A stretch of DNA of 63,270 bases, counting the filler, from Asterionella formosa (lineage: Eukaryota), in assembly GCA_002256025.1 (NCBI GenBank). It is 4 parts of 4 records of this genome, joined end to end, with 100 filler letters (N's around TTAATTAATTAA, not from the genome) between each part and the next. Parts side by side here need not be neighbours in the genome. Positions count along the whole stretch, not along the records: positions 1 to 20,580 come from NKIB01003293.1; 3 more parts are not named here. One strand, 5' to 3'. Below the pieces are notes generated by a model that was not told where the DNA came from, did not search any database, and worked only from the letters and a program-made list of their open reading frames with translations. Positions within the stretch are counted from its first letter, which is position 1, and each line of letters starts with the position of its first letter. A program made the translations under genes and the position numbers. This document shows, in pieces, positions 7,301 to 52,444 of this stretch.

Positions 7301-7846
7301 CATAAGAGGTGCTATCAATCGTGTCAACCGTGTTCCTCGCCCCTCAGTTTCGGCATTGGCTTCATTGTCGATTTGGACTCTTACGAGGTGAGTTGCGTCT
7401 CGATTGCGCACTTCTCATCATTGCGATAATCGAAAGACGCCGTTGTTCTACTCCGCGCAGTCTCGTCCACTTGCTTGTTGCGCGCCGCCGCGTGCGAGCG
7501 TTGCTGGTTCTTGGTTCCACGATCGGATATTCTTGAACCTCTGCTGCTGCCTTGCGTGTCGCCGTCGATCGATGTCGACCATGAATAAGACAGAGAAGCT
7601 GCATACGTCGTTCTCTTTGACTATACACATGCTGAGAATTCCTTCTAACAGTAGCTGCTCTTTCATCGTGCCAGTGACCCCTTAATACCGTGTATACACA
7701 TCAATACATCTTCCATTGAGAAGTACAGGAGTCCTTAATAATCAACAGGACAGGACCGTGGAACGTTCATTCTAATTTTCACTTGCTACGTCCTTTCTTG
7801 TGCTGCTCTCGTTCGCCACATAAAACCCCCGAGTCTCTGAAGTGAT

Positions 7847-9946
7847 ATGATGACATATTCGCAAGTATTTGCTGCTCCTATCCCCCAACAAATGAGCGAC
7901 GACCACAACCCAGCTAGCGAACTCGACGAGAGAATGGACAAATCAAATATGAACTCTCCTCACAAGGTCAAGTACGAATCAACTGCTGACGGAGATGTCA
8001 GATCTTTTGTCGTGGAGCTGGATGACGAAGCCAAGCGCGAAGGACTAAACCGCACCGACGCATTCAGGGACGGGCCAATACATGAGCCAAGGCAACGCTC
8101 TGCGATGGCCAACAACGGGGCTACACACACGAGAGACTTATCGGCTCACTTTTTTGATGCGACCAGGTTGACAGATGCGCTAGAAGGGGAAGTGCCAGGA
8201 AACAGTTTTCAGTATCAACACAACCGACCAAATCTATCACACCCTGAAGGGCATGTTACTTATATGAATGCAGGCGGCCCTCCGCCGATATCACCAGCAG
8301 GAAACACTGGGCAAAAACACCGACGCGGCTATTCGGGAGATGTTTCCAACCCAGTTGTGGCGCATCGCCGTATCAACTCTATCGGAAACTCGGCTCCAGT
8401 GGACAGAAACTATGCATACTACGCCGGTCATGGTGGAGCCTTTCAGCCTCCAGCCCTTCGACCTTCCTATGGACATCGTCGCGAGGATTCATCTGGTCTA
8501 GATATACTCTCTGCTGTGGCGAACGTTTCTAAGGAGGAGCTTGCAATGGCTGCAGGACGACCGACCCCCACTGTAACATGGGACAATCCTCCAGAACCAC
8601 GGCGCCCAACTGAAGTCCTGCGGATGTCTCCTTCTGCTGTGAGTGCTGCATCATATGACTATCCACGCGGCCCTCCCCAGAATCACCCCTATCATCCTGG
8701 CTATCCTCCACCCGCCAATATTGGACCTTATCAGCATGCGTCACCCCATCCCTACCATGCTTTTTATCCCCCTGATGGTCCTCCACAATATCATCAACGG
8801 GTTCCAAATGCTTCTCCTTATCCTACTCAGTATGCTCCAGCAAGAAGTACTGATCATTATTCCAAACCATCATACGCTCCTCAACAACCAATAATGTCCA
8901 AGTCCCAAATGGGAGAAGGGTCACGTCGTGTTTTCGATGAGAGAATTGACACCGATGAACGGTTATTTGACCACCAGCAAGGGCATGGCTGGAATGATAA
9001 TCAAAATACAGGAACAACTCAAGGTGGAACCAACCTCACAAATCCGCCCACTGTAGGACATCATCGTAAACTTTCTTCCTATTCGAGCATTAGTACTTTG
9101 ATGAACTCGGCGTTGTTTCCAGAACCAGGAGAGGCGCCTATTTCCCAAGCCGCCGAGAAGAAGTTTAGCGGTCACCATAGGGCCACTTCATCTTCGGTTT
9201 CCTTTCTTCACGGTCTCGAGGACGCAGGCGACTTGTTTCTTCATAATCTCGGTGCAGCTCAAGGGGTCGCGTATCAAGCTACATTTAGCCCTCCATCCAC
9301 CAAGAAGACTGTCGCTAGTCAACCACCGGAAACCAAGTCTAGTGTCGCTGTTGTCAGCACCAATCAAGGGTCTGGAAAATTACTTGCAGAGGGTGGAACG
9401 AGTAAGAGGGTGAGACGAAAGTGCACTGCTGACAATTGCCCAAACCGGGTCGTTCAAGGAGGATTATGTATTTCACATGGAGCAAAACGAAAGATTTGCA
9501 ATCATCCTGGGTGTTTCAAAAATGTGAAGAAGGCTGGCCTGTGTAGTACGCATGGCCCCGCTCGTAGACGGTGCGACGTAGGTGGGTGCGGCAAGGTGGC
9601 GGTGCAGGGTGGTCGCTGTATCGCTCATGGAGCCAAGAAAAAGTTATGCGAAAAGGAAGGGTGCTGCAAACAAGCTATTTTGAGCGGGATGTGCAAGAAG
9701 CACCACGATTTGAGCCAAGGTATTGCAAGTGATCGCGGGGTGGGCGAAGAAGGAGGAGACGATGATGACGATGATGGCGAGGAGGACGAAGAACGAACTT
9801 GTGGTGACATTTCTACAAAGCCACCAACAAGCAAGGTATCATTGCACCGTCGAGGTCTTTCGATTTTTCAAGAGATAAGTGCTGAGTCTGTTCATACTTT
9901 ACTTTCTCATGACGAGGAGATGGGTGGGATGCACCCTCTCATGTAG
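7847..9946 (+). CDS. Zinc-finger protein with four tandem C-x4-C-x9-C-x2-H repeats (stramenopile WRKY19-like family), probable transcription regulator
   Basis: 699-aa ORF with a low-complexity Pro/Tyr/His-rich N-terminal region. Repeats: CTADNC..GGLCISHG, CNHPGC..AGLCSTHG, CDVGGC..GGRCIAHG, CEKEGC..SGMCKKH. Start codon uncertain. Confidence 0.85.
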   Translation: MMTYSQVFAAPIPQQMSDDHNPASELDERMDKSNMNSPHKVKYESTADGDVRSFVVELDDEAKREGLNRTDAFRDGPIHEPRQRSAMANNGATHTRDLSAHFFDATRLTDALEGEVPGNSFQYQHNRPNLSHPEGHVTYMNAGGPPPISPAGNTGQKHRRGYSGDVSNPVVAHRRINSIGNSAPVDRNYAYYAGHGGAFQPPALRPSYGHRREDSSGLDILSAVANVSKEELAMAAGRPTPTVTWDNPPEPRRPTEVLRMSPSAVSAASYDYPRGPPQNHPYHPGYPPPANIGPYQHASPHPYHAFYPPDGPPQYHQRVPNASPYPTQYAPARSTDHYSKPSYAPQQPIMSKSQMGEGSRRVFDERIDTDERLFDHQQGHGWNDNQNTGTTQGGTNLTNPPTVGHHRKLSSYSSISTLMNSALFPEPGEAPISQAAEKKFSGHHRATSSSVSFLHGLEDAGDLFLHNLGAAQGVAYQATFSPPSTKKTVASQPPETKSSVAVVSTNQGSGKLLAEGGTSKRVRRKCTADNCPNRVVQGGLCISHGAKRKICNHPGCFKNVKKAGLCSTHGPARRRCDVGGCGKVAVQGGRCIAHGAKKKLCEKEGCCKQAILSGMCKKHHDLSQGIASDRGVGEEGGDDDDDDGEEDEERTCGDISTKPPTSKVSLHRRGLSIFQEISAESVHTLLSHDEEMGGMHPLM

Positions 9947-11637: not shown

Positions 11638-12574
11638 ATCTGTTCCGATAAAAATCTTCGTAGTTTCGTAACTGATTGTGGGCGATGATGTGAAAGGAAT
11701 GAAAAAATATGTTCCTTTGATTATTGTTGTTGGTATTTCGATCGAATTTGTATGATGGCATATCTCATGCAGAGCAAGCATTTTTGCAATACCAGTAAAC
11801 TATAGGATATACACGTACTAGCTAGCTGTACACATATTCCGATATATATCTTTTCAACAATTCCATTGTTACAGCTTCCGGTTTGTTCCTCAATTTTTCA
11901 CGACCATTTTGTCATACGTACCGGATACTATTACCGCACAACCCTTGAAACAACATGGAATTCTCGCACTCCATGTCAATTCCTTACGGTATGCATATGC
12001 GAAGGGAAGGACAGTGGACGACCAGGTATCAATAATTGTTCGCATTCTATGTCATTCGAAATGATTTACCGGGGTACCGGTAACAAGTTTCAAATAAGTG
12101 GGTACTCTATCTACAGGTAAATCATCCACCGATATAGGTACATATAAGTGATTGAGATATGCAGACATCATCTGCCGGTATGCAGTTTTCAGGCTTCGTT
12201 TCGAGACAGAAGACATATACCGGTACTAGGCACTTGCCACAATCATTTACTGGTATTTTGTTACATCATAATTATTACGACTGGTATTACTATGCATGGC
12301 TGACAAAACGAGAACCTAATGCTTATCGAAGTAATGGCATATGTACACTAGAAGCTACGGCCAAGACAATCTAAACGAGTGAACAGCGAATAAAAGGGTC
12401 ATGCTAGTCTCAATACGTGATGCGGTCATGAGGCAGCACAGTTGAGTCACGATGATCCTTAAGGTTCCAGACATAGTAGACTAATACGACCGCTTGGGAT
12501 TCGAGGAGGTCAAACTTTATTTCCCATACCGGTATTCGCTTTACCCAAAACAGAATTACCCGTAGAATACGACA

Positions 12575-13034
12575 ATGGCGGATGCAGCTGTGACTTGTAG
12601 CAGCGCAAACGCAGGGGCCAACATCAAAGAGGAAAGCCTCAACCGTCAAGTGGTTAGAAATCTACTCAATGGGCACGAGTTGAAATGTACGATGGACGAT
12701 GGAAGGACAGCGACGGGTGTCTTGGTATGCATTGATCGTCTGTAAGTCAGCTCGCGTTACAGTTGTTTGCCTTGCTCAAGAAGCCGGGATTTCTAATGAA
12801 TGCTACTTTTACCCATGTAGACAAAATATAATTTTATCAAATGTTGTGGAAGAACGAACGGTCGATTCTAGTATGTACGAAACAGCCAAAACCCCAGGCC
12901 AATTTATTACTATCAAACGAAGGCTGAGCCAAGCAATGATCCCTGGCCCTCATCTGGTCAAGGTTGAAGTGACCAAGGCAGTGTATGATGCTGCGATTTG
13001 TAAAGTATCACCGATAATAGACGCTTTTGAATAG
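12575..13034 (+). CDS. LSM-domain protein, NAA38/LSMD1 (NatC auxiliary subunit)-like; two exons (12575-12741, 12821-13034)
   Basis: Removing the GTAAGT...TAG intron at 12742-12820 gives 126 aa. The product has Sm1 LKCTMDDGRTATGVLVCIDRLQNIILSNVVE and Sm2 RRLSQAMIPGPHLVKVEV. Confidence 0.8.
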
Positions 13035-13175
13035 ACACGAAATGACAACAATTAATTAGTCGAAGGGCCTTTCGTCGGCGGACAATTACGGCGAGTTGTG
13101 TACCGGTAGCGACCGTTACAACTTAATAGTGGAAAGGCAGTCAAAACCATAAAAATGGTGGCCTATTTATACATT

Positions 13176-15071
13176 CTATTCATATCGTGATGGCGTTTTG
13201 GCGTTCCTAGTCCACTCCATGGGGAGATCTTGAGAAGATAGCGCAAATGGTACACTCTTCAAGTTCAACAAAGTCGCTAGCTCGTGCTTGGAGCTACAGG
13301 CCCACTCTAATTGTTGCAATACTATATCGTTCAGCAATCCAGCCCTGGTACAATAATCGAAGCTTCTCTTCAGTACCGCCGACCGCATTGGATCACCTTC
13401 CGGAAGGAGTTTCCGTAGGATTTTGAACATGAAGACAAAAGTAATGGAAGATGGTCTGACATCTTTGCTGTCGAGAATGTTTTGAAAAACATCGGACGCA
13501 ATCAAAAACGCTTTTTGCTTGATTTCGGTCGACCCAAACGTATTTGCACAGGCCCTTAATAGCGAATTGTATGTGATGATATTTGGCGTACAGCTGGGCC
13601 GGTGGAGGCCAATCATTTCCTTGTATAGTCGATACGCGTCGGTAGCCATTTCCACATTGGGACACTGTGCGTGCGCATCTAGAATTACATTGTAATGAAT
13701 CACCGATGGCTCAAGATCAAAGTTTCCTGCCTGAAAACCCGCCTCCATTCGGGCCAGGAGTTCCTCCGCCAGCTTTGCTGAACCTCCTCGTCGACTTCGA
13801 CTCAGAGTTTTAAAGACGGATGTATACGTGAAAGAGTTTGGACAGATATCCTCATGACCAGCTAGTGAAAGGTCTTCCATTCGGTCGAGCAACTCCAGCG
13901 CCTTTTCATGAGCAACAGTACTGTTTTCCCGTGACCAGCAAGTAATAACGGAAGAAAATGTAATTGTGTCGGGTTTGACAGTCATATCTCCGTCCTTTTC
14001 GTACATTTCCCACATTCGATCCAGCAATTGATTTGCTTCTTCTGCCGCTCCACGCAAGCCAGTGTTCGAGAAGGCCAACATCAAGCAAGTATATGTTACC
14101 TTGTTGGGACGAATACGCTTGCCTCGGTCCACAGCTAACGCCTCCATCTGATCCAAGAGAGCCTTGGCCTTGACTACAGATGCCTTTTTCTTACTCGCTG
14201 CCCACGCTAGAATGACACTTGTGTAGCTGTACACATCCGGTTCCAGGTCGTCATTCCCCGCCTGATACAAGCGTTCCATATGTAGCAAGAGTTCTTCCGC
14301 TCTGACTGGAGCAAGGTGAATGCGTGAATTTGCCCATGAATACAAGACAGTATTGAACGTGACCGTATTCGGTTTGATGTTGGGGTTCCCGTCACTGAGG
14401 TGAATCATTTTCCGTAAGAGCTCCTCTGCCTTGACAGCGTCGTCCTTGAGCGCATACAGTACACTATTGTAGCTAATAGTATCAGGATCCACTCCATATC
14501 GTGACTTCATCCTGTGTAAAACGACTTGTGCTTCCTCCACCATGCCCCGTCGTGCAAACGTCCAAATCAAAGTGTTGAATGAAATAATGTTGGGTTCCAG
14601 TCCTTGCTCTATTTCCGCCAAAACAAGCTCAATAGCCTTTTGAGGTGCATTTTTTTCTGGAGACCTAGCCCATGCATTCAGGACCGAATTCCAAGAAACA
14701 ATGTCTGGCGCACATGCATAATACCCCTCGTGATGCAGTGCTTCGATTCGAGTTAACAGCTCTTGCGCCCGACTGGCGGATCCAGGTAGACTGCTTTTCG
14801 CAAGAGAGTCTAGATTCATATTGAGTGATTCAAGAGGATCACTTCCCTTGTTTCTAGGCTTGTCTGTTTGATGAGGGCCACTCGATTTGCTCTGTTTTTT
14901 GAAAGGCCGTTGTCGTGGAGGGTCCGGGGAGAAGGAAAACAACTTGGGAATACCATTGCGACGTATCCGAGGACACGCCACCACTCTTTTCAGGAGCTGC
15001 ACGCCTGACAGAAAAGCTGAGCAGAATACTGGAAGTAACAGAGTTAGGATCCATAGGAGATTTTTACCCAT
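13176..15071 (-). CDS. Pentatricopeptide repeat protein, probably plastid-targeted
   Basis: ATG at 15071 gives a signal peptide MGKNLLWILTLLLPVFCSA|FL (ASAF-like site). About ten PPR motifs follow (PDIVSWNSVLNAWA, PNIISFNTLI, PDTISYNSVL, PNTVTFNTVLYSWA, PDVYSYTSVILAWA and others). Confidence 0.9.
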   Translation of the reverse strand: MGKNLLWILTLLLPVFCSAFLSGVQLLKRVVACPRIRRNGIPKLFSFSPDPPRQRPFKKQSKSSGPHQTDKPRNKGSDPLESLNMNLDSLAKSSLPGSASRAQELLTRIEALHHEGYYACAPDIVSWNSVLNAWARSPEKNAPQKAIELVLAEIEQGLEPNIISFNTLIWTFARRGMVEEAQVVLHRMKSRYGVDPDTISYNSVLYALKDDAVKAEELLRKMIHLSDGNPNIKPNTVTFNTVLYSWANSRIHLAPVRAEELLLHMERLYQAGNDDLEPDVYSYTSVILAWAASKKKASVVKAKALLDQMEALAVDRGKRIRPNKVTYTCLMLAFSNTGLRGAAEEANQLLDRMWEMYEKDGDMTVKPDTITFSSVITCWSRENSTVAHEKALELLDRMEDLSLAGHEDICPNSFTYTSVFKTLSRSRRGGSAKLAEELLARMEAGFQAGNFDLEPSVIHYNVILDAHAQCPNVEMATDAYRLYKEMIGLHRPSCTPNIITYNSLLRACANTFGSTEIKQKAFLIASDVFQNILDSKDVRPSSITFVFMFKILRKLLPEGDPMRSAVLKRSFDYCTRAGLLNDIVLQQLEWACSSKHELATLLNLKSVPFALSSQDLPMEWTRNAKTPSRYE

Positions 15072-15794
15072 GGTGGATTGTCGTCGGCGTCTCTTCCAAC
15101 CATCGCTTTCATCCAAGCAAAGCTACAAAACGAAAAAGAAGTGGCTGTTTCTGCTTGAAGAGGACGACGAGCAGTAAAAATGAACATTTTTGGAATATTT
15201 AGTACGCCCACACATAGCGGTATGTGATATACGGTACCCCCTGGTACATACCAGTATTGTGCTGCTATTTATAGAAACCTGGTACCCCTTGTACCAGCCA
15301 GGTGCTGCCTTGCTGTTGGGATCATTCATCCATACCAGTACCCGGAAGATCCGGTAAACACGTTTTTACTTCGGCAAAGATTTAGCTAAATATCTCGATA
15401 ACCGGACCTTCCCCTGTAGTCTACCGGTAGTATATTATGTGCAGTAAGTTGAATGGCACCATGTGATATTAAAGAAATAAAAACCTTATGTAGTACCGGT
15501 ACACATGTTGTTGTCTGAGCGACGGCAAGACAAGGGATGTTCCACGAGGCAGAGGAGGTGGGTACAAAACTAATACAGGTAATGCATACCGGTATTTACC
15601 AGATATACCGGTTGTAACATGGTACCACTACTGGGACCTAGTACCGGTACCAGTACCGGTACCCGGTAACAACAAAGGAATCTTACCTATGAAATCGACA
15701 TTATGATATGTAGAATTCAAAATTATCCTCCTTCAAAGAAAATCGAGGCCTTAAGTTGAACCTGCCCCTTGATACCTTTTTTGATTCTGCAACC

Positions 15795-16535
15795 ATGATG
15801 CTACTACGAGTCGTCGCCAGCTCACTGTTGCTGTCCTCTTCCGCGGCGTTCCTTCCCGCCTTGCGACTACAAGCGGTGCTGAAGCCTGATGCCGCTTTGC
15901 ACGCAGGCAAGGGGTTTGGAGCACCTCCTCCACCCCCTCCGGTTCCAAGGCAACGACCGGATCCAGAAGAACCCACTACGGTCGTCGCTTCCTCACCTGT
16001 CCCCATGAATCAAGGCCAAGCCGCCTTGGCAGAAATGAGACGAGAACAAGCAGAAAAGCGAGATGACGAACTCCGCAAGGTCAGGGAAGTCCGATCTGTC
16101 GACACTCAGCTTCGGGAAAACCCAGGCTCGGCTGCCATTCCAGAACAAGTTGCTATGCGAATGGGCCAGCGCATGTTGCCCTTTGTAGGAATTCCTCTGA
16201 TAGGAGGAATGGGAGCATTTGTGGTATTTTGGTATCTGGCGACGTACAAGAACCAAGAGTTTCAACCCGCACTTGTCGCGTTTTCGACAATTGGAATGCT
16301 TGGTGTTGGTTTGGTCGGAATCACCTACAGTGTCATGAGTGCCAGCTGGGATCCTGATCGCGAGGGGTCATTTTTGGGGACAGAAGAATTTTCGAAAAAC
16401 TTGGATAGCTTGCGAGGAGGTCTGAAGCGATCACGCGAGAACACTGTGATAAGGGAGAAGATGGCGGGAATGTCCGAGGCGGAGATTGACGCAGCTATTC
16501 GAGATCTGGATCGACGAGAGGAAAAGAAAGACTAA
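15795..16535 (+). CDS. PAM68: PAM68-like photosystem II assembly factor, plastid-targeted
   Basis: Signal peptide ending SSAA|FLP. IPEQVAMRMGQRM, two TM helices and SASWDPDREGSFLGTEEF are typical of PAM68/DUF3464. Confidence 0.88.
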   Translation: MMLLRVVASSLLLSSSAAFLPALRLQAVLKPDAALHAGKGFGAPPPPPPVPRQRPDPEEPTTVVASSPVPMNQGQAALAEMRREQAEKRDDELRKVREVRSVDTQLRENPGSAAIPEQVAMRMGQRMLPFVGIPLIGGMGAFVVFWYLATYKNQEFQPALVAFSTIGMLGVGLVGITYSVMSASWDPDREGSFLGTEEFSKNLDSLRGGLKRSRENTVIREKMAGMSEAEIDAAIRDLDRREEKKD

Positions 16536-16881
16536 TCTTGGCATTACTACAATAAGAATTGAGCACAGGATCGTCGAGGAAACAATTGATATAGATGCCG
16601 TTATTCAACGTTGCTACCAAGCATGACAGTATCATGATTCAAGATTCAGGTATCACCTGATCATGATGTTAATGAGCAGAACACAATTAAAAAATTTGAT
16701 GTAATTTTTTTAAACCATGGCACGTTACGGCAATTTATCATGGAAATATCCTCTTCACTTGGCAACAAATCATTCCCAGCTACTGTACTACTCAGCACAC
16801 CTGCGATGGGGAGAATGACCAAATCAATGTAACCTGCAAATATCAATGATTAGTTGACAATGTAAAATATTACCCATGATC

Positions 16882-17222
16882 TAGGGAATTGCTTAGTTGG
16901 GTAGCACGCATTCCAAGGTGGTGGGTTTGATTCCTGCATTCTCCAGCTGTCTTTCTTTTTCATGTGGTCCTTAGGGTTCTGGCTGTGTGGCTACTGAACA
17001 AAAAAACAGGTCCTGTTGTACTACCATACAGACAAATAAAACTGGTACTGATCCCTGTGTTCCAGCACCGGAAGTCACTACGTTTGTTGGGATGATACTA
17101 GGTTGTTAAGTAATCATATGAACACCAGGGCTGGCAATGGCTGCCAGGAAGCGCTATGTGGCCTACCCTTCTAGCAAATGAGTAGTCTTAAAGAGCTTAT
17201 TATAAGTGAAGTTAAACTTTTT
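16882..17222 (+). mobile_element. tRNA-derived SINE, copy A (about 341 bp)
   Basis: A 14-bp direct repeat TATTACCCATGATC lies at 16868-16881 and 17223-17236. A-box TTGCTTAGTTGG and degenerate B-box GGTTTGATTCC are present. The first about 170 bp align with 52101-52255. Confidence 0.85.
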
Positions 17223-18549
17223 TATTACCCATGATCCTCAGATAAACAATGCATAACAAGCAAGGTGGGCTACATCTACATGTAGCCCACAGCCCCAGCC
17301 TCATCATCCATGATGCTAGTTTCTAGTTAGTTGGAGTACCAGGTATCATTTCTATAGGAAAACAGATTCTTGTATTATAGCTAGGAATAATACTCCATAA
17401 CTGCTCCTATGTAGATTAATTATTACCTGATGGTATCTACTGCAGATAAGCAGGCAGGTACCAGGTTACATACCCTGGCAATATATAAGAATGATCACAC
17501 CATGATGGTCATGAATAGCTACTCAAGCAAGTAAATGAAATAAAATTTCCCATTTGCATTTAGAGGAAGAATGTAGAGCTGATAGAGAAGTGGCATTAGT
17601 TATGAAATTCCATTCACAAAAAGCAGAACGCATTAATACAAGCTATGTGCCTTAGTCTTTGTTGACAACTCAAATATAGACAGGAACAGTTTGCTTCCTT
17701 TTTCCATTGTGAACATATCAATTTACAAATTGATTTACAATCAATTCAACTCCAGTTCTTTCTGATCAGTTAGAATTAGGATTGTTTGCCCAAACTTTCA
17801 TGTCGACAACAAAGCATTGAAAATGGTCTGTACTTGATCATTCAATCATTCTTTTACTTCATAACATAGATAGAATATTGTATTGCTGACATTGTACTAG
17901 CTAAGCTGCACAGGTTATGACATGCCTGTGAATAATTCATTTCATAGAGCATTCACCTTTCAAATATTTCATTCCAATTTGTTACTTGAATGATCATCAT
18001 CTTCATCAACATCATAATAATTCAAATATTTCGTTACCTGAAACAGTTTCTACTAGTACTCCTGGTGTATAATATTTCTGAGGAGGAAATTGACATTTTG
18101 TCCCCCTAACCCTAGTCCTAGAATCTTCCAAAGTAGCATCTGAAGAGTCTAAGATTAGGGTTAGAGCCAGGATTAAATATCAAAATCATATTAGGGGGAA
18201 GAAATACCATTTTTGTAAACCACCCCTATGTTTATATAAACTAAATATATTAATGATTATTTGTATGTAAATGATACTCTGCTTTATAGCCCATTTCAAG
18301 GCAATTATTCATTGTGTTGCCTGCCGACAAGACCTGTGCTTCCCTAGTTTTGTTAGTGTAGGTGAGTCCCCAACCACGTTTAAGGAAAGGTGATTGTCTT
18401 AGCCGCAGCGTTAGGGGAAACTCCGACCGCCTAGAAAGGTGGCATAAGCTGCTTGAGGGGGGCAAACCCACTATTTCTTGCACACCAGGCAAGACCGAGT
18501 GGGACGGTAAGGAGTTTGGGAGTCGAACCCAACAATTGCTTCTCAAAAT

Positions 18550-18620
18550 TTTTTTGCGGGAATCGAAACACACAACTTCATATCAAAGGCGAAATGCTCA
18601 ACCAACTAGTACCATAAACC
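18550..18620 (-). pseudogene. Degenerate tRNA-like sequence (Gln TTG-like), possibly the head of another SINE
   Basis: Minus strand reads GGTTTATGGTACTAGTTGGTTGAGCATTTCGCCTTTGATATGAAGTTGTGTGTTTCGATTCCCGC, with an A-box, a CTTTGAT loop and TTCGATTCC. A second B-box hairpin TTGGGTTCGACTCCCAA lies just downstream. Stems are imperfect and no TSD was found. Confidence 0.4.
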
Positions 18621-19439
18621 ATTCCCTTCAGCCATTCCCTAGCACATTGGCTAATGCTTTAAAAACCCAAATGAGTCCTGTAAATCCCGTGCTCCGGTTT
18701 TCCATCACGCTCCTGTCTCCTCAGTGTACATCTGGTGCTTAACACCCAAATATTTTACATGTGCAGAAAGTAGAATTACTATTTTTCTATTCTAAGAAGC
18801 TCCCATACTAATGCATCATATCATTTTGTTCGGCACCATCATGAAAATGAAATCCCGTCGAGATGGAGTAATACTCGGCCTATGCGGTGTCACAAAAGGG
18901 CGAAGCTGTGTTCAATAAAGATGCTTTGGAGCTCATGTTTGCATCAATGATACAGCGCGTTTCAAGCTGACAATGGTGAAGATCGGTGAGGAGAAAGAGC
19001 TGCAGATGGCGATGAAGGATGTGGTTGTCTGAGATGGAACAGAGCTGTGTACAGTCGGGCTTTTTGGGCAAGAACATTGCTGCTTTGGAGAAAACAAGAT
19101 TTCGATATCAAGTTAAGTTTGCTCAAATCATTGAGTTCTATGATGAAAGTGACAATTTAATAAAGAGGGTTAGGTGCAACCACAACCTTGGAGTGGCTTC
19201 GTTTCGACTTTTTGATGACATCCAAATTCAAGAGTGAATGGATTCTAAATTTTTCTTCTTTCAATAAGGTTAAACAATCTTGATTGAAAAAGGATAGATT
19301 CAATCAATATTAACTAGTAGTTGAACATTTTAAGACTTGAAACTGGTTGTATGATTTAATTTCAAGTCGTCAACAAAACATGTAATATTTTTCCATTTGC
19401 AAGTCAGACATTTAGTTTGCAAACGATATATTTAACAAA

Positions 19440-20430
19440 TAAAACAAGATGTAATCACTTAATGTTATCCAAATAGACTGCAACTAAAGTAAACCAGCTT
19501 TGCATCCAATGCTGACCCAGTTATTTGTGATCGACAACACTGTTATCTGGGCCATGCTGTCTCCACCAATTGGGCATCATTATGTTCTTAACTTTTTCAT
19601 TTTCTAAGTTTTGAACCATAAAATTATCCCATGCAGCCTGGACATAGTCTTTGAATGGCTTGTTTATGAAACTGGGATGTGTAGCCATGGGTTACGAAGT
19701 CGAATTCGGTGCCACAAAATCTAATGGCATCTACACATTTGCCAACTTTGTGGACTGAATAGTTGTCCATTAGCAGGCAAATTGGCTCTCCTAGGAATCC
19801 CTGAGTCCAGGGCTTTCTTCCAATCCTGTTCAATCCAATTCAAAAAGACAGTTTGGTCTACCCAAGCCCTGGCATGTCAAGAGTATTTCACTGAAACCGG
19901 AAATTCGTGTGCTGGATTGATGGCTAACTACATGCTCTACCTGTCCATCACTGCCTGGTAGTACCCTTGAACACAATGAATGCAGGTAGCTTTTATCCAC
20001 TACTAAGATTTACACCTAAGAGCACAGTGCAACAAACAGAGGTACCTGAAGTCTTCATTCCAATGGTCCTGGCTCCTCGTTCTCCAATGTTAATGATCCA
20101 TACAAGTCATGCACCTAGGGTTCATGCCAATGGTCTGAATCTGTTGATTGGCATATGCTACAAACTCAAGTACAGCAGGATTTATGGTAGACTTTCTCAA
20201 TGATATACCGTTGCAAAGTACTCCTACTTCTCTTACCGGTAGGGGCTTTCTTTGCTGTCAAAACAAGCAAAGCAAGTGCTGATCATGCCAAAAGCAACGA
20301 GGAAGCAAAAACGCCATGCATTGCTTGCTTCGTCACTCCTCGTTCCACTTGAAATTTTGGAGCTCGAGCTCGAGGTCGCCATGCGTTTCCACGAGGTAAC
20401 GGCCTACAGACGACGAAAAGTAAATAATAC
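19440..20430 (-). pseudogene. Degenerate pogo/Tc1-mariner DDE_1 transposase
   Basis: Broken frames encode CTVLLGVNLSSG*KLPAFIVFKG, AWVDQTVFLNWIEQDWK and LLMDNYSVH...GYTSQ, which are DDE_1 motifs. Boundaries approximate. Confidence 0.7.
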
Positions 20431-20453
20431 CTGTATGAGTATACTGATACTTG

Positions 20454-20580
20454 TGTTAATATCTGCATATGATGCTCCATACATGCGCCGTACGAACCAT
20501 ACCGGCGCAGCCACCAGATTAGGTACATGCGTGAGTGCTGACAACGATGTACTTGGAACAGCAATAGAATAGTCATAATA
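20454..20580 (+). mobile_element. Copia LTR (5' or solo), truncated by assembly spacer
   Basis: Starts TGTTAATATCTGC and is nearly identical to the reverse complement of 40570-40696. No PPT upstream. Confidence 0.85.
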
Positions 20581-20680
20581 NNNNNNNNNNNNNNNNNNNN
20601 NNNNNNNNNNNNNNNNNNNNNNNNTTAATTAATTAANNNNNNNNNNNNNNNNNNNNNNNNNNNNNNNNNNNNNNNNNNNN
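20581..20680. other. Artificial contig spacer
   Basis: 44 N + TTAATTAATTAA (stop codon in all six frames) + 44 N. Confidence 0.97.
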
Positions 20681-21236
20681 GAGTTGGATCAGGCGTTGGA
20701 GCAGCTGTTGGCCAAGGAGTTGGGACCGGCCAAGGAGTTGGAGCTGGCGTTGGAACAAGTGTTGGCCAAGGAGTTGGAGCAGGCGTTGGAGTAGCTGTTG
20801 GCCAAGGAGTTGGGACCGGCCAAGGAGTTGGAGCAGGCGTTGGAACAAGTGTTGGCCAAGGAGTTGGAGCAGGCGTTGGAGCAGCTGTTGGCCAAGGAGT
20901 TGGGACCGGCCAAGGAGTTGGAGCTGGCGTTGGAACAGCTGTTGGCCAAGGAGTTGGAACCGGCCAAGGATTTGGAGGAGGAACAGCTGGGACCGGGACC
21001 GTAGCCGCTGCGACTTTAAATGGAGCATTGCATTCAAAGATTCCAATTGAAGGGTTGCAGACGCATGTCTTGATAGCAGATACGCCGTTTCTTGTCACCT
21101 GGTAGTGGCATTCGAGACCTGGTACCGTACAGGTGATTGTCTGGGTCTTCTTGATGCGATTGACAGGGCACATCGGATCATTAGCGAGAGCACCGCTAGT
21201 AAAGAGGCAGATCCCGAAGACGATAGAAATCTTCAT
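20681..21236 (-). CDS. Secreted protein with a Cys-rich domain and Pro/Thr/Trp tandem repeats (3' end lost in gap)
   Basis: ATG at 21236 gives the signal peptide [18 protein letters not shown], then a six-Cys domain, then [16 protein letters not shown] repeats running into the spacer. Confidence 0.8.
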
Positions 21237-22810: not shown

Positions 22811-25800
22811 TATTACAAACAAGAACGGACGCGTTAGGGCCGTGCAAAGAAGCAAGCCCCTAGTAATACAAATAAACTCGCATTCGAATCGAAGGAGTCG
22901 AAGCTGAGGCATTGAAATAGCGACAACGTGACTACCGGTATTAATTTCTAGCTTTTAGAGTTGAATCGAACAACCCAGAGTCAGCAGCTAAGACAAGGAA
23001 GACAAGAGCAACCACGCAAGGTTATCTTACTAAGTGAAATACCGTATACTTCATTGTGTTGGACCCCCCAATGTACACTGCCATGACTGAATTTGACTGA
23101 TTTTACTTAATGGAGGCCCAGGAAAATGAAGAGATTTCCCATATAATGGACCTAAGTAAATTTCTTTATTTCTACATGATACCGCACATTTTTCTAAGAT
23201 GTACTAATATGACAATTATTTTCGTGATGTGAAAAATCAGAGAGTTCTTCACGTTGCAAGAAAAATGCGACTTCATGTTGCTATTGGCGATCTCAATTTT
23301 CGTTGTCATTATTAGTGTTATTACTTTACTTTTACAATTGTATTTTCCATGTTGTTTTTAATACAGGCAGCAAGTAGCAAAGCGTCGTTCTCTTTTTTCG
23401 TGGAGATAAATTTGTATTTTCGTCATGGTCAAGGTTGCAACAACATGATAAAGGATTCTCCAGCTGCTCACAACCAGTACCTGTCTTCTCTTGTGTTTTG
23501 TATGTACAGAAAAAGCAAAACCATATCCAAATAATTAAATACTAATGCCTACGAGGACAAAAAGAATTATGGCACATTACTTTGTCTATGACAAGAAAAT
23601 TATTTGGTGTACAGGGTGGTCCAGGACAATAAAGTATGCAGTAGTAAGAGGGGCAAAGTGCTTGTTATTCTTTGGATAACAATTCAAAAAAGCAGTCTAA
23701 AAGCATCGCCAAGCCTTTTGCAATTTATAGTCTAAATCAAACCAAAACTAACAACATGAATCTAGCAAACACCTGAAAGATGTATTATAAAGATACTCTT
23801 GCAACCCGAATCCACCTTACGACCGAGTTTCACCACTTTGCAAACATGATCAATAGAGCAACCATGCCAGAAATCTGTCAAGCCGTACTCACAAACACTC
23901 CTTTCAGTATCCATGCAATGATTGGCACACTCAACCACAAATTCCACGTCTGTCACCAGCTCAGCAATCTCACCGGCAGCACCTGGGCACAATCAGATAC
24001 AGCATACATTGCCCTCCTTGGTCTTGGCTCGACTGCCCAGCCCATTGCCGTCAATGCCAAATAGGTCCAAGCCACTGTCACCACCACCATCCCTAATCAC
24101 AACGCATTGCACAATCACATAACCACCCCGAGCAATTGCACACCTTGCACTTGACCGGCACCCTGACCATGACTATCATGGATATCGCCCATTTGGTTCA
24201 AATCCCGCCTTCTCTATTCAACACAAACACGGCGGACCTCTCTGTCAACCCTGCCGAACATTTTTTCCCTTAATCGCCTTGTCACAAAAACATTTGCTGA
24301 GTAACAGGCAAACATAGACGCAAACAGCTTGATCGAAGATAGAAATGCGATTCGCACACAAGTGTATGCCTACTCGGAATACTTCCTCCATTTCTTGTAT
24401 ATGGCAGCATTGATTCCAAACAAGCTATCCTTACCAATCTCATATGCAACAACTAACGAGATTATGGAATGGAGTGCAACTCTGCACTGCACACACATGT
24501 CCCCTCACACACTCACACCAATGACAGACAGAACAGCTATTACCACTAAAATTGACTTGACTCAAGCACTTGATGACAGTATGGTGCAGGTGGCTGCAGC
24601 ACTTGTGAGTATGGCATCCAACCTCGCAAGGAACACAGACCGGCTCATGGAAGCGCGCTCCTCGAACAATCCCTCTTCATCTAGGTCTTGGGAGAAGGAA
24701 CCTAAGTTCCTTCAGGACCAAATCCTATCATGTCTCATGGCCACTCACGATGACGACATTGTCAATGACCCGATTTCACCCAACAACAACGCCAAATTGC
24801 ATTCGGCAATCCAATGATCTCGCCACTTCATCCCCGTGTTGCCGCATTGTTCTTTTAGCCGAAACGAAACCAAGAAGATCAATTGGATGACCATCAACGT
24901 CGCTACCAGCAACACGGCATGCGCAACAACGGCCAACACCAATCCGATCCACAATCACCCACCACAATAAGACCCTTTTCATTCGGGGACGGGCAGTCAC
25001 CAACTCCCGGGCCGATATCCTTTTCCGACTCCCCTTAGGCACATTCTATCGCGGCGCATTCCTGGCCTTGGTCCTTCGCAGAGCACCCAAAGTGAGCGGT
25101 TTGACAAACTGCTGCCGCTGGCAAATCTCCGGTTTATGCATAGACAATTGCGATAGGAAGAAGGCACACGTTCAGCTGACAGGAGATAACAAGAAAGCCT
25201 TCCTGACGTTTTTCAATGAGGCCATTTGCGCAGTCACCACCGAATTGACTAGGGCAAACCCGAGTAGCTGTAACGCTCCCTATAACAAAGCATTGATCAG
25301 ACTACTGCGGTTCCAAAACACCACTCGACGCTTGCGCCCCTCCAACCACCACATTGTCACTTACCATCATCACATCATCAGCAATTCGTCGACCGAACAT
25401 GGAAAATTTTTTTTCACATCCAGATCCAAATTTCTAAGTCATATACGGGCCCATACCAATCCTTCCTCATCTTAACGCCACGTCACTAAACCTGCCGCCA
25501 TTACAGACTGCTACACTACCACCGCGTCCACCGCCGCACCCGCCTGTAGTAGTATAACAAATACACACAGCACGACCGTCAGGCAACATCAAGAGTCTAA
25601 TGGGTAAGTCCACCTCGCTCATTTATCGTCCCTAACAGAGCAGCTGCCACACTCCTCGCCAACGACCACCTCCACGTAAGCACCACACTTCTACTTAAAG
25701 AAGTCGCATGCGGATGGCAACTACCCCTCTCACCAGAGAAAATTCGCCTCCTTCCACACGCTGTGGTAGCCCCGATGGGCATAGTGACGCAAGCTACGAT

Positions 25801-26516
25801 CAACAAGTATGGGGAAATGACACCCAAAGACCGATTGACACATTACCAATCATTCCAGTTCTCAAAAGGGACATCTGTGAACGCCTGCATGATATTCGAA
25901 AACCTGACACCCTGGCGATACGGCACAGCTCTCTGGCGATTCATTCACTACATTGTGGACCTACGTAAAATCGAGCCGGACACACGTATTCTAATTACTA
26001 AATTAGATTTTAAAGCCGCTAATCGGCGCTTACACACATCAGGCCATACGACCGCATCACAAGCAATAGTCATTATCAATGATATTGCCATCCTCGCCCT
26101 CTGTATGACATTCAGCTGAGCACCAAATCCAAGTATCTGGAGCGACGTCTCCAAATTAGCTTGCGACACGTGTAACATGATCTCGTGTTGCGCATTATGG
26201 GATCCGGAAATTACCCCAATGCTAGAATCTCCTCATCAACACAAATAAGTAAAGCCGCCACATTTATCTCGCCAGCACATCGGCATGCAAAACCGCACTT
26301 AACAGGACGGTCAAGCCCCATGCAGACCTAGCACCATTCACAGACTGCTACTTAGACGACTTGTTTACATGTTTCCTGGACCGACCTACACAAATTTGGA
26401 AGGGATCAAGGATCAGACTACTTATGTTACTACATCTATTGGGCCATCCTGTTTCCGACAGCAAACAACTCCAACGGGAAGACCTACTAGCATTCGATAA
26501 AGTGCTCACCGAAGAA
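22811..26516 (+). mobile_element. DIRS/Ngaro-like tyrosine-recombinase retrotransposon, 5' part (terminal region, gag-like ORF, RT), degenerate
   Basis: The 5' end is set by homology with the 44819-45396 copy (TATTAC...). The gag-like ORF ends in CCRWQISGLCIDNCDRKKAH. RT motifs: KLDFKAANRRLH, LCMTFS*APNPSIWSD and CYLDDLF. Many stops and frameshifts. Confidence 0.85.
23042..23641. mobile_element. Tc1/mariner (pogo-type) MITE, 600 bp, inserted in the DIRS-like element
   Basis: Imperfect TIRs CCGTATACTTCATTGTGTTGGACC and GGTCCAGGACAATAAAGTATGCAG, with TA on both sides. The homologous DIRS copy lacks it at about 45170. A second copy lies at 52990-53602. Confidence 0.88.
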
Positions 26517-28254
26517 TGTCTGCAAATAAAAACTATCATATTTCCATGATGCATCATAGGATTGTGATCATCTGATCATAATTTTTCGTTATATCATCTA
26601 ATAATTTTGATAAATGCCCTTGTAATGTAAAAAGTAACCCTTTTGACTACATATATTTAATTATTATATGTATTGTTTCTAGTAGATTCCTGTATTCGAA
26701 TTTCTTGGTAGGATAATGTACAAGCTGAAGTAATGTAATTTGGCTCATCATTTCCATCCGTCATCACTCTGATTATTGCAACAACAACGAAATACTAGCG
26801 ATCACAAGTGGAATGATTGTTTGCGATAATGACGTCTTCAATTGTTGGTCATGTGATCATTATATCTTTGAGAAATTGTCATGTGCAGTGAACCTTTGTT
26901 CATAATCATTCAATTAAGAGTTTACAGAGAAGAAATCATTCGAACTCATAATGGTTCTGCACACAGCGCACATTATGAATCCGTTTGTCGACCACCAGCA
27001 TTACAATCTCGCCAATCAACCCATAAACAAACACATTCTACTTGTTCTTGTTGACATTTTAAATTCTCACATGATACTACATCTACTATTGAGATTCAGC
27101 ATAGAAGGAGATACGAAAATGTGCGTAACAGACTACTGTCCACATAGCTATAGTTATAGAATGATTCTGATTACAATTTCTTTTTCATGTCGCTCACTCG
27201 TTTCTGCATTTCGCATGCTGTACTTGTACTTACTATTGAACTTGTCCGCATCTTTGATACCATCAAGGGAGCGAAAGCAAGAGGCTCTCTTGATTGTTTT
27301 TTTTGTAGGAAATATTTGATATCCGTATCGACATTTGCTTGTTGGAGCTGTCCGTTGCCTCAAACCTGCTTGGCGTGTGCGTACACACACTGCCGACTTG
27401 TTTTCATTGGTATGTTGTTCTTGTATTCACTGTTGAACTTGTCCGCATCTTTGTTACCATCAATAGAGCGACAAGTGGCCTGGCTCTCTTCATTGTTGTT
27501 TGCTCCTGGAAAAGTCGGTGTCCATGTCATCCTCATCAATAGAGGGACAAGTGTCCTTCATCATTGCGGTTTGCCACTGTAAAGATTGGTACCCATGGTA
27601 TCGTCATTCGCTCGTTGGAACCACTGTCCATTACCTAAAACCTGATTAGCGTGTGTGTATGTGCACTGTCGACTTGTTTACATTACAGGAGTGATTTAGC
27701 TACTAAAGTGCGTGTTATAATATCATACTCTGTAGTACGATGCAGAATACTGCAGTGATCATAGAACTATGATGATTTCTTAAAATGTTTATAATGTATT
27801 TTGAATCAAAATATGATCATGTTAAAATTATACAATGACAATAAAATACGATAAAATATGTACGCAAGTGTTATCGATACATCACAGAAAATAAATAAAT
27901 AAATAAATCATAATTATGTATCAAAGTAAACAGATGCATTGATATGTACATCACTATAATATGATTTGTGATATGGATTGATGAATATCACATACCGGTA
28001 TCCTCAACAACCAGCCATCACGTTCATTGTCGTGTCGTTTTTCCTTGTTATAGCTGTATTGATGCCGGCATGTGTATTGTGTAAACACTACGCTGGCAGA
28101 ACATGCATATTACACAGCTGTGCTCTGTTCAACAATTACTACACTCGGTTACCATCACACCAGCTGCACCTCCACAAGCGCCGCAAAAAGCTCCACGTTT
28201 CCATTCCACTATTTTACATCATAGTCTTCTGGCCCTTTGACAACTTTCCAAATG

Positions 28255-33500: not shown

Positions 33501-33990
33501 GGAATAACATGAGTTCTAATTCGATTGGATGCATGGTCAGGAAATGTTTACTTGGAAGTTGAAATTGAAGAGGAAGGGGCATTTCCATTGCATTTTCAGG
33601 GAGAAAGTTGGTGTGATCTTGGAAATCTGAATATTGTATGGTCTCTGAATTCAATCCTTGGAGAGCTTTTAGTCTCAATTGTTCGTCTTGCTGTGACTGA
33701 ATATTGTTATAAACTGAATCGTCGCTGTCGTCATGAAATGGATGATTGTGGCCACTTGATTCAAGGATAGGACACATAATCTCTTCTTGTTGTCTACTCT
33801 CCCTAAATACTACAGCAGTTACACTGCCATCATTAACTTCTTTCCTTGAATGATTCGGTGCACTACCGCAATACATAGTTTCATTATGTATTCCAAGAAC
33901 TCGATATTCTTGCATGCAATGTCGACAGTGACCATGTGCATAGAAGTAAAAATGGAGGTTTACCGCTACATACAGTACAGGCACCACTAC
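30520..33990 (-). pseudogene. Plavaka-type transposase (broken)
   Basis: Motifs VALAVFSDGSPID...HPFLLTMLNL...WHLLSLLP, MIIGDTEEHNKICG, CDC, GATPFEVLHQLLLGIFKY, RQSDRDIPK...SKMSGQE and HYPHLIRKFVSPLNFFGGYLES match the Plavaka/EnSpm D-D-H-E layout. Boundaries approximate. Confidence 0.8.
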
Positions 33991-34112
33991 TAGTAGTATA
34001 GAGCAACATCATTGTTTTCCTAACATCTATGATATGGTTTGTGTAGTATTGTAGAAGTCTAACACTAACTAGTATATTTATTATGTAACTACTAAGTTTG
34101 CATTGGATTCTA

Positions 34113-41245: not shown

Positions 41246-41345
41246 NNNNNNNNNNNNNNNNNNNNNNNNNNNNNNNNNNNNNNNNNNNNTTAATTAATTA
41301 ANNNNNNNNNNNNNNNNNNNNNNNNNNNNNNNNNNNNNNNNNNNN
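41246..41345. other. Artificial contig spacer
   Basis: N44-TTAATTAATTAA-N44. Confidence 0.97.
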
Positions 41346-51357: not shown

Positions 51358-52100
51358 GATGTCCAATAGGTTTTCAGAAGAACAATTTTAAAAAATTAAA
51401 CTAATTGACTTGTGTAACAAATGATTGAACTTGCAACCCATTTATTCAAGATCAAAAGGAACTTCTGTCAATCTGCTTATAAGCAAATGAAACGACATCA
51501 ACAATGTTGCAAAGAAAGCCGAATTAATCTTGTTGGCTGGAAAGTGGGCTTAGTACCCAGAAGTGGGAGCAAGATCAAGTGACAGTGGAACTGATGAAAA
51601 GGTAGCCTTGTGTTAGGGTTAGGGTTAGAGAAAGGTTGCAAAGAAACCGAATCAAGCTTGATTGCTGAACTCAGTAGCTGGTACCATGACAATCAATAGA
51701 CTTATGAAAATAATTAAACTACTGCTGGTACCAGCAACCCAATTACTTCTGGTATTATCCTACGGATACATCATCTGTCCACCGATAAAGCAAGTATCAT
51801 GCCTTCCCTCCATAAATTCTACAACAGCAGCCTCCTCGGATTATGGTTAGGTTTAGGATTTGGACGTTTCTTTTTGAAAATGACGTCATTCTTGCTTTGC
51901 CACGATTTTTCTCATAATATACAACGAACAGTGTTTCATGCACAACAAATAATGTAAGTCGCTCTTCACTGATTACTCGTTACTTTTCGACTCTACTTCC
52001 TTCATCTATATCACATGGAAAGAAGAGGAACTGTCAGTGCTGGTGGGAGGTGTGGAAGCAGGAACAAGGAATCATATTATTCTATAACATGATACTGCTG

Positions 52101-52346
52101 GGGAATGGCTTAGTGGTTAGCACACCTGATGCGGTGGCAGGTTCGATTCCTGCATTCTCCACCTGTCTTTTTCATGTAGTCCCTAGGGTTCCGGGCTGTG
52201 TGGCTGACGAAAAGACAGGTCCCGTTGTACCGTACGGATGAATAAAACCGGTACTAGCGTATTGTGTCCATTTATTCATTTATTTGGGCACAAGTGCGAT
52301 TATAGGATAGCTTTAACGTACTATAAGATTTGATTGATAATTTTAG
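52101..52346 (+). mobile_element. tRNA-derived SINE, copy B (about 246 bp)
   Basis: 15-bp TSD AACATGATACTGCTG at 52086-52100 and 52347-52361. A-box TGGCTTAGTGG, B-box GGTTCGATTCC, acceptor-like stem GGGGAAT/ATTCTCC and a GATT-like tail. Confidence 0.9.
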
Positions 52347-52444
52347 AACATGATACTGCTGCATTGCTTGACGCCTTTCGCAAGGGACGGCAATCTTGAA
52401 GCTGTCTACATGTTGGGTATGATCAATAATTATTGCCATCAGCC

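Follow-up and report, generated by a model that had tools for sequence, protein, structure and literature searches.

Two related insertions in the Asterionella window

The window, which is the whole 63,270-nt stretch of DNA analysed here, comes from Asterionella formosa, a diatom, and consists of four contigs joined by spacers of the form N...TTAATTAATTAA...N, the runs of N occupying 20581-20680, 41246-41345 and 61904-62003. It contains two related insertions, named copy A and copy B (Table 1), that lie on different contigs, since these spacers separate the four. The initial annotation had described them as lying on different contigs with a perfect target-site duplication (TSD) each, and both duplications, 14 bp for copy A and 15 bp for copy B, are indeed exact. 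They coincide precisely with the limits of similarity between the two copies, and one 14-bp duplication surrounds all 341 nt of copy A. Positions 3-168 of copy A align with 52101-52255 at 77.2% identity over 167 columns (BLASTN, E 1.2e-29). Among the window ORFs listed, none of 110 aa or more overlaps copy A or copy B, so both are short and non-coding. Terminal inverted repeats are absent: copy A contains no inverted pairs, and those of copy B are internal only.

Table 1. Features of the two probable SINE copies in the window
Feature	Coordinates	Strand	Evidence
Whole SINE copy A (341 nt), comprising head, core and the long tail A	16882..17222	+	TSD-bounded; BLASTN to copy B
Copy A, left TSD TATTACCCATGATC	16868..16881	+	Exact 14-nt direct repeat with 17223-17236
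Copy A, tRNA-like head, decayed; B-box-like GGTTTGATTCC at 16924-16934	16883..16945	+	Rfam tRNA, 16.1 bits
Copy A, core (tRNA-unrelated body), ends AATAAAACTGGTACT	16946..17049	+	81/105 identical to copy B core
Copy A, tail A, 173 nt, ends in T-run	17050..17222	+	Unrelated to tail B; recurrent in run X1
3' part of tail A that is most repeated; candidate recognition tail	17142..17222	+	Depth peak in X1; joints in X1 and X2
Copy A, right TSD TATTACCCATGATC	17223..17236	+	Exact 14-bp match to 16868-16881
Copy B, left TSD AACATGATACTGCTG	52086..52100	+	Exact 15-nt direct repeat with 52347-52361
Whole SINE copy B (246 nt), comprising head, core and the short tail B	52101..52346	+	TSD-bounded; metagenome contigs match
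Copy B, tRNA-like head; A box 52106-52116, B box 52140-52150	52100..52161	+	Rfam tRNA, 28.5 bits
Copy B, core, ends AATAAAACCGGTACT; contains inverted repeat ACCTGTCTTTT / AAAAGACAGGT (52161-52171 / 52210-52220)	52162..52255	+	Alignment to copy A core
Copy B, tail B, 91 nt, ends GATTTGATTGATAATTTTAG	52256..52346	+	Recurs in L005, L001 and L003
Copy B, right TSD AACATGATACTGCTG	52347..52361	+	Exact 15-bp match to 52086-52100

Head, core and tails

The heads of the two copies are identical at 49 of 62 positions (79%). That of copy B scores 28.5 bits against the Rfam tRNA model in a local search (E 3.7e-4), just below the gathering score of 29, and is the sole Rfam match at E<=1 within the whole window; the head of copy A is more decayed (16.1 bits, E 1.3). 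At the gathering score Rfam gives no match in the window, and ARAGORN finds no tRNA in the window or in six metagenome loci (L001-L006, described below). The A box and B box consensus motifs used for matching are general knowledge. Copy B matches both exactly, and copy A carries a B box with one mismatch. In both copies the anticodon-arm region is shorter than in the Rfam tRNA model, and the minimum-free-energy fold of copy B is a cloverleaf with a mini anticodon arm (4-bp/6-nt). The tRNA-like head with A and B boxes and a shortened anticodon arm that had been proposed is thus borne out, with exact boxes in copy B and a decayed version in copy A.

Behind the head lies a core of about 95 nt, identical between the copies at 81 of 105 aligned positions (77%), with a local alignment score of 56 that none of 500 shuffles reached (shuffle mean 8.0). 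The tails that follow are unrelated, as their local score of 9 is no better than that of shuffled sequences (mean 10.0; 409/500 shuffles equal or better). The description of a shared head and core that diverge into unrelated tails therefore agrees with the alignments. The same description called the core structured, and this part holds up poorly. Copy B folds more stably than its shuffles (z-score -2.19), whereas copy A does not (+1.21). All six aligned copies retain the core hairpin, with hardly any covariation: alifold gives covariation a term of -0.14 kcal/mol, and only 2 of 28 pairs change in a compensatory way.

A run of T4-T6 is located at or beside the end of each tail, which fits Pol III termination. 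In LINE-dependent SINEs a sense-strand 3' T-run is unusual, and A-rich or short tandem repeat ends are commoner; the 3' T-runs of copies A and B are accordingly a point against a LINE-driven SINE.

Copies in metagenome contigs

Metagenome contigs were scanned with a 21-nt pattern from the T-arm/acceptor region, which yielded the six loci L001 to L006. Homologous sequence is present at five of them, in copies that are 75-86% alike; the invariance of the T-arm/acceptor region among these five is by construction, as the pattern lay there. L005, L001 and L003 possess head, core and tail B, and match copy B through the tail at 80-86% identity, the match extending along copy B to position 244, 241 and 226, respectively. 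Tail B is thus retained at four independent loci, with an identity about equal to that of the core. An imperfect duplication of approximately 10-11 bp, ATTTC(C)TGTCT, flanks the copy in L005. L006 is a 5'-truncated copy, and L001 contains a second, divergent copy on the opposite strand (E 1.4e-10). Tail A is found at none of the six loci. The core is common to the A type, the B type and contigs of other metagenomes, and so is the head.

Other candidates were discarded. The hit at L004 is a 22-mer that matches by chance; it falls within a long ORF on a prokaryote-like contig of high coding density. L002 was considered as a head joined to a third kind of body, and this was rejected: the 137-nt stretch behind its head is 91% identical to 33806-33945 of the window, inside an ORF. 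It is a head-only fragment beside a conserved stretch that is probably coding. Viral contigs gave no match to either of two patterns of the element, and the single match in prokaryote genomes, a 20-mer from a Bacteroidales MAG, is attributable to chance and comes with no tRNA.

Depth, variants and junctions in sequencing runs

Contigs of four sequencing runs were aligned to 16600-17500 at 80% likeness or more: X1, the likely source run (1007 matching contigs), X2 and X13, which are runs from other studies (319 and 181), and X7, an RNA run represented by assembled contigs (7). In X1 the summed contig depth, which does not equal copy number, is 785-1,081 over the flanks and 389,836 over the T arm and acceptor (16910-16940), with 13,504-16,169 over the core of copy A and 20,198-74,483 per bin over tail A. 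Relative to the flanks this is roughly 360-500x for the head and about 19-95x for tail A, whose peak of 74,483 falls in the bin 17158-17188. The depth profile is alike in X2 and X13.

The X1 contigs are diverse. An alternative letter occurs in 106 different contigs at 16946 and in 34 at 17162, and variant letters inside tail A are carried by 24-34 different contigs. At 16928, C accounts for 366,397 of a depth of 511,444, restoring GGTTCGA. Of the 56 kinds-of-change places, 40 show transitions, in line with the decay that retroposon copies undergo as they age. The core/tail-A junction is spanned, with at least 31 nt on each side, by X2 record 20 and by X1 records 2, 3, 4 and 6, the latter four with 16-32 differences. 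Two further joints, 16978->17142 and 17004->17142, seen in X1 and X2, connect head/core variants directly to the 17142-17222 part of tail A.

No joint skipping 16882-17222, as an empty-site allele would give, was found in X1, X2, X13 or X7; in X2 and X13 the match of the flank contigs ends at 16794 and 16817-16878 is uncovered, so that these runs are uninformative on presence or absence there. All seven X7 contigs are partial and run on into unlike sequence, none of them over the flanks, indicating that the copies are embedded in longer RNAs, so that these contigs speak neither for nor against Pol III transcripts.

A SINE family with alternative 3' modules

These data establish a genuine, multi-copy family with alternative 3' modules. 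The initial annotation had raised the possibilities of few copies genome-wide or of a tail occurring once; instead, head, core and tail A together, and likewise head, core and tail B together, each recur elsewhere. Its proposal of a tRNA-derived SINE-type retroposon family is supported by the TSDs, the tRNA-like head and the copies in metagenome contigs and sequencing runs. Copies A and B very probably belong to one such family of non-autonomous retroposons in a diatom, with the anatomy and mechanism outlined here, and the family is apparently undescribed.

A full element begins with a head of about 62 nt, in which the anticodon arm is reduced and the A and B boxes form the internal Pol III promoter. 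A family-specific core of about 95 nt comes next, and the element closes with a 3' module of which there are at least two versions, tail A (173 nt, its final ~80 nt being the most widely shared) or tail B (91 nt). Pol III would transcribe a master copy from the head onwards, stopping at the T-run that lies at the 3' end or close to it. An autonomous non-LTR element would supply the reverse transcriptase, which would recognise the 3' module and copy the RNA at a staggered nick in the chromosome, and TSDs of variable length, here 14 and 15 bp, would result. Subfamilies would have arisen as one 3' module took the place of another while head and core were conserved, and the tails would originate from LINEs.

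Comparison with known SINEs

Elements that combine one front half with different rear ends are familiar from animals and plants and have hardly been described from diatoms. MetaSINEs and CORE-, V- and DeuSINEs are characterised, in the available text of PMC4824008, as tRNA-derived SINEs with variable 3' tails that change their partner LINE. The diatom family resembles them in its tRNA-related Pol III head, its conserved tRNA-unrelated centre, its variable 3' tails and the variable length of its TSDs. It differs from them in that the head is shared as well, and in its occurrence in one diatom and related metagenome contigs; it also differs from most SINEs, which have A-rich or tandem-repeat ends, in ending in T-runs. 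Under the definition of PMC4824008 the A and B types, which share the head besides the core, count as subfamilies that differ in their tails within a single SINE family. Of the modular tail-swapping system that had been suggested for a diatom, the part that stands is the presence of different tails on a shared head and core.

SINEs are absent from most unicellular eukaryotes in the view of Kramerov and Vassetzky (2011), as quoted in passages of PMC7466962 and PMC5859163. For diatoms, the accessible portions of the literature report 13 'putative SINE' copies from automated annotation in P. tricornutum Phatr3 (PMC5859163) and SINEs in Cyclotella cryptica (PMC7466962) and Pleurosigma (PMC12803021). 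In these portions the diatom SINE literature consists of automated 'putative SINE' counts only, in agreement with the statement that few diatom SINEs have been described; supplementary libraries (e.g. Table S6, PMC7466962) may hold relatives. Such annotated elements share the host group and the class label with the family reported here. They differ in being known, in the text available, by counts and GC content only, in accounts that include no anatomy, head origin or tails, and the comparison is one of descriptions. The infSINE families of the oomycete Phytophthora infestans (Whisson et al. 2005, as cited in the part of PMC3522703 at hand) are likewise tRNA-like SINEs in a stramenopile, of another lineage, and are likened here by description only.

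Origin of the tails and alternative explanations

The partner element would be expected to encode a reverse transcriptase. No reverse-transcriptase or endonuclease domain is present in the 42 window ORFs scanned, out of 64 ORFs of at least 110 aa. A real retroposon family might carry tails that were never borrowed from LINEs, having been acquired by Pol III read-through to the next T-run (a heritable 3' transduction) or by template switching. Under such an origin mobilisation would be independent of a specific tail, and another reverse transcriptase, for example of a Penelope-like or DIRS element, could act. The T-runs that close both tails are in keeping with this, as are the lack of a LINE among the scanned ORFs and the non-LTR class of P. 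tricornutum, which in the available text of PMC5859163 comprises 'putative SINE' only and no LINE. We consider both this origin of the tails and such tail-independent mobilisation unlikely, as the final ~80 nt of tail A are more repeated than the remainder of that tail and joined to several core variants, which is how a functional recognition module should look, and tail B is kept at four independent loci with about the identity of the core. Tail A could also be a one-off, whether inserted secondarily or acquired in a single 3' transduction, with the B type as the sole architecture, and its absence from all six metagenome loci points that way. This is hardly tenable given that the depth of tail A in X1 is 19-95 times that of the flanks, with variant letters in 24-34 contigs and similar profiles in X2 and X13, that at least four differing contigs span the core/tail-A junction, and that a single 14-bp duplication encloses the 341 nt.

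Descent of the ~95-nt core from the central domain of an animal SINE (Deu/Nin, Meta, CORE or V), by deep ancestry or horizontal transfer, was suggested by a likeness to Deu/Nin proposed in the initial annotation, which is the one point in its favour. These superfamilies are described as metazoan in the accessible text of PMC4824008, and a literature search with six 13-16-nt strings from the element gave no relevant match, two papers each containing one string in an unrelated context; homology of this kind appears highly improbable. The Rfam matches of copies A and B include no Deu/Nin, Meta, CORE or V family. That the elements are short, non-coding and multi-copy would also suit a MITE, i.e. 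a non-autonomous DNA transposon, or dispersed functional tRNA-like genes. A MITE is contradicted by the absence of terminal inverted repeats and by duplications of no fixed length (14, 15 and ~10-11 bp). The 5' truncation of L006 and the 75-86% likeness among copies, with transition-rich decay, speak against both, and we regard either as extremely unlikely in comparison with a retroposon.

Significance of the family

The exchange of tails is not a new mechanism. Clear in its anatomy, with copy-equivalents in the hundreds and two or more recurrent tails, this tRNA-derived SINE family would provide a concrete retroposon system for diatom genomics. It would offer presence/absence markers for population and phylogenetic studies of this lake diatom, and a way in to the active non-LTR elements that mobilise it. 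More tentatively, the head and core may represent a long-lived diatom SINE lineage, freshwater and marine, that persists by repeated exchange of 3' modules between autonomous partners, a possibility to which we attach rather low confidence. If true, no SINE system of this 'superfamily-like' kind would have been characterised outside animals before, and diatoms are a group long believed to lack SINEs. The family also serves as a test case for tail exchange as a general route to SINE persistence.

Two insertions with a common front and unlike tails

The window is made up of four contigs set apart by N...TTAATTAATTAA...N spacers, so that the two insertions, copies A and B, lie on different contigs, as the initial annotation had claimed. 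Each comprises a tRNA-like head, a core of about 95 nt and a 3' tail, and is bounded by its own direct repeats. Over their first ~167 nt the two copies are 77.2% identical (BLASTN, E 1.2e-29), with 49 of 62 positions identical in the heads and 81 of 105 in the cores; the cores reach a local score of 56, where shuffles average 8.0 and none of 500 is as high. Tail A (173 nt) and tail B (91 nt) score 9 (shuffle mean 10.0; 409 of 500 shuffles at 9 or above), a likeness no greater than that of shuffled sequences. The exact 14- and 15-bp repeats, BLASTN and the shuffle tests thus confirm two insertions with their own target-site duplications, a common head and core, and unrelated tails. Neither copy has terminal inverted repeats, and an nhmmer profile from six copies detected no further copies in the window.

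Coordinates of the SINE features in the window
Feature	Position	Remark
Copy A	16882-17222	between exact 14-bp direct repeats
Copy A duplication TATTACCCATGATC	16868-16881 and 17223-17236	exact, 14 bp
Copy B	52101-52346	between exact 15-bp repeats
Copy B duplication AACATGATACTGCTG	52086-52100 and 52347-52361	exact, 15 bp
Copy B A box	52106-52116	the one exact Pol III A-box motif in the window
Copy B B box	52140-52150	exact motif match

Head and core

The head of copy B aligns with the whole length of the Rfam tRNA model at 28.5 bits (gathering score 29; E 3.7e-4) and is the sole Rfam match at E<=1 across the 63-kb window. Its anticodon-arm stretch has 5 nt against 13 in the model, and the minimum-free-energy structure of copy B gives the head an acceptor stem, D and T arms and, between these arms, a mini anticodon arm (4 bp/6 nt). 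ARAGORN called no tRNA, as expected for heads of this kind. The A-box and B-box motifs used for Pol III promoter matching are those that we take to be the consensus. The head of copy A is decayed, with 16.1 bits (E 1.3) and one mismatch in the B box; at position 16928, reads give C in most family members, which restores the B box. B-box-like motifs with at most one mismatch number 16 in the window (6.7 expected), a count reached by none of 100 shuffles. On the minus strand, one exact and one near motif of this kind stand 40 nt apart (18519-18529 and 18559-18569), with no tRNA-like Rfam match near the pair.

The core had also been described as structured. In copy B, two 11-bp stretches make up a perfect inverted repeat (ACCTGTCTTTT/AAAAGACAGGT), and this copy folds better than most of its shuffles (z -2.19; 4 of 200 as good), and two hairpins are mostly retained in the six-copy alignment. 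Copy A, however, folds no better than its shuffles (z +1.21), and the covariation term of the alignment is -0.14 kcal/mol, with double changes in 2 of 28 pairs, one of which falls at CpG positions, whose parallel decay might look like compensation. Together these results point weakly to a structured core.

Recurrence of tail B

A scan of metagenome contigs with a 21-nt pattern from the T-arm/acceptor region gave six loci (L001-L006). Three match copy B into its tail: L005 to B position 244 (82.7% identity), L001 to 241 (85.6%) and L003 to 226 (80.4%). L005 has its own imperfect target-site duplication. L006, a copy truncated at its 5' end, retains head, core and the beginning of tail B; a (GATGAT)n run stands where the opening ~26 nt of the head would be, and most of tail B is missing. 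L003:33-1011 and L006:184-947, from different metagenomes, are 92-93% identical over the SINE and both flanks and are, on sequence similarity, one insertion in two related genomes. Tail B, present in the window, L005, L001 and L003/L006, therefore occurs at four independent loci. L001 also carries another family member that has diverged much further (880-1042, minus strand; nhmmer E 1.4e-10), opposite in orientation to the B-type copy on the same 1-kb contig; its anticodon-arm region is longer and its 3' part differs. L004 was rejected as a family member, since its 22-mer is a chance match and lies in a prokaryote-like contig with dense coding.

L002 has the SINE head only. This fragment, on a contig labelled as a marine metagenome assembly (L002:1228-1440), directly adjoins 137 nt that are 91% identical to window 33806-33945, a stretch inside the minus-strand ORF 33406-34008 with no SINE at that window site; the 137 nt are probably a conserved exon of a related diatom.

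Recurrence of tail A and a third architecture

Contigs from four sequencing runs were compared with 16600-17500 at a likeness of at least 80%, and matched in 1007 cases for X1, 319 for X2, 181 for X13 and 7 for the RNA run X7. X2 and X13, from other studies than X1, have the same depth profile as X1, and tail A depth peaks at 17158-17188.

Summed depth of matching contigs, which is not equal to copy number
Region	X1	X2	X13
Flanks	785-1,081	152.7	5.3
16910-16940 (T arm, acceptor)	389,836	51,543	1,201
16941-16971	276,466		
Copy A core	13,504-16,169		
Tail A	20,198-74,483	2,920-9,734	74-259

The depths suggest rough single-copy equivalents of several hundred for the head, ~12-21 for the copy A core variant and 19-95 for tail A. 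Independently of depth, distinct X1 contigs with a letter unlike the window number 106 at 16946, 24 at 17100 and 34 at 17162. Five contigs that reach at least 31 nt to either side span the core/tail-A junction (17049/17050): X1 records 2, 3, 4 and 6, each with 16-32 differences, and X2 record 20. At loose contig ends, most heads run 5' and 3' into B-like sequence. Depth, variant contigs and the spanned junction make tail A a recurrent subfamily module and lead us to reject a one-off transduction or secondary insertion; with tail B at four loci and the tail A junction spanned in both X1 and X2, the proposed multi-copy SINE family with recurrent alternative tails is borne out.

Two further joints, 16978 to 17142 (with 40 other letters between) and 17004 to 17142, occur in X1 and X2. 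They set head/core variants directly onto the last ~80 nt of tail A, the segment of highest tail depth, and thus represent a third architecture, in which the core is shortened and followed by the 3' part of tail A. The segment 17142-17222 behaves as a portable unit.

Proposed mode of amplification

In anatomy the elements are tRNA-derived SINEs, with a predicted internal Pol III promoter, non-coding sequence, duplications of variable length, one 5'-truncated copy and transition-rich decay (transitions at 40 of 56 change places in X1). Transcription by Pol III would begin at the head and stop at the terminal T-run; an autonomous non-LTR element would supply a reverse transcriptase that recognises the 3' module, and target-primed reverse transcription would insert the copy. 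The tails may stem from partner LINEs, as first proposed. The 3' ends are T6 in tail A, AATTTTAG in tail B and ATTTTTA in L005. No reverse-transcriptase or endonuclease domain was found in the 42 scanned of the 64 window ORFs of at least 110 aa, and all seven X7 RNA contigs continue into unlike sequence. Alternatively, the tails might be read-through sequence that was captured, and a different type of reverse transcriptase might act; this is unlikely. That several core variants have the last ~80 nt of tail A in common speaks for a functional module.

Host

Among the products of the long ORFs in the window are a dihydrouridine synthase (Dus), a PPR protein, a PAM68/DUF3464 protein, a WRKY19-type zinc-finger protein and a PhoD-like phosphatase. 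Among the best 120 matches of the Dus protein, all named ones are diatoms (Chaetoceros, Thalassiosira, Cyclostephanos, Cylindrotheca, Nitzschia and Bacillariaceae) at 54-59% identity, and metagenome proteins reach 73-77%. The host is therefore a diatom, as first annotated, and not close to the named genomes among these matches. The algae metagenome X1 contains 94% of the sampled words of 12001-20500 and lake and freshwater metagenome runs 23-50%; X2 and X13 each hold a left-flank contig ~95% identical to the window.

The second contig opens with a tandem array (20681-20981) that has a 90-nt period (3.1 copies, 96% matches) and nested 36/54-nt periods; it falls within long open frames and looks like repetitive coding sequence. 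GC skew is strong in the interval 24001-27000, at -0.231, and does not exceed |0.1| in the rest of the window; the interval contains three consecutive plus-strand ORFs with no Pfam match.

Relation to known SINEs

The core had first been noted as recalling the Deu/Nin core, a putative link to animal SINE domains. A text search of the literature for six element strings matched two papers, both unrelated. In the literature searched, diatom SINEs appear in pipeline-level mentions, as far as the passages retrieved extend: for P. tricornutum, 13 copies termed 'putative SINE' (PMC5859163); for Cyclotella cryptica, newly observed SINEs, together with the view that they were absent from unicellular eukaryotes (PMC7466962); and a remark on GC content for Pleurosigma SINEs (PMC12803021). 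No description of the anatomy of any diatom SINE was found in this literature; the family may already be catalogued in Repbase or Dfam.

SINE superfamilies are described, in the part of PMC4824008 consulted, as SINE families from diverse taxa with a common central sequence, reported to persist via change of partner LINE. The diatom elements resemble them in carrying alternative tails on a conserved front; unlike them, they have the head in common as well, and their record is confined to one diatom and related metagenome contigs. The initial interpretation is partly supported, in that the SINE family, the recurrence of its alternative tails and the diatom as host are upheld, and the elements are best classed as subfamilies of one SINE family.
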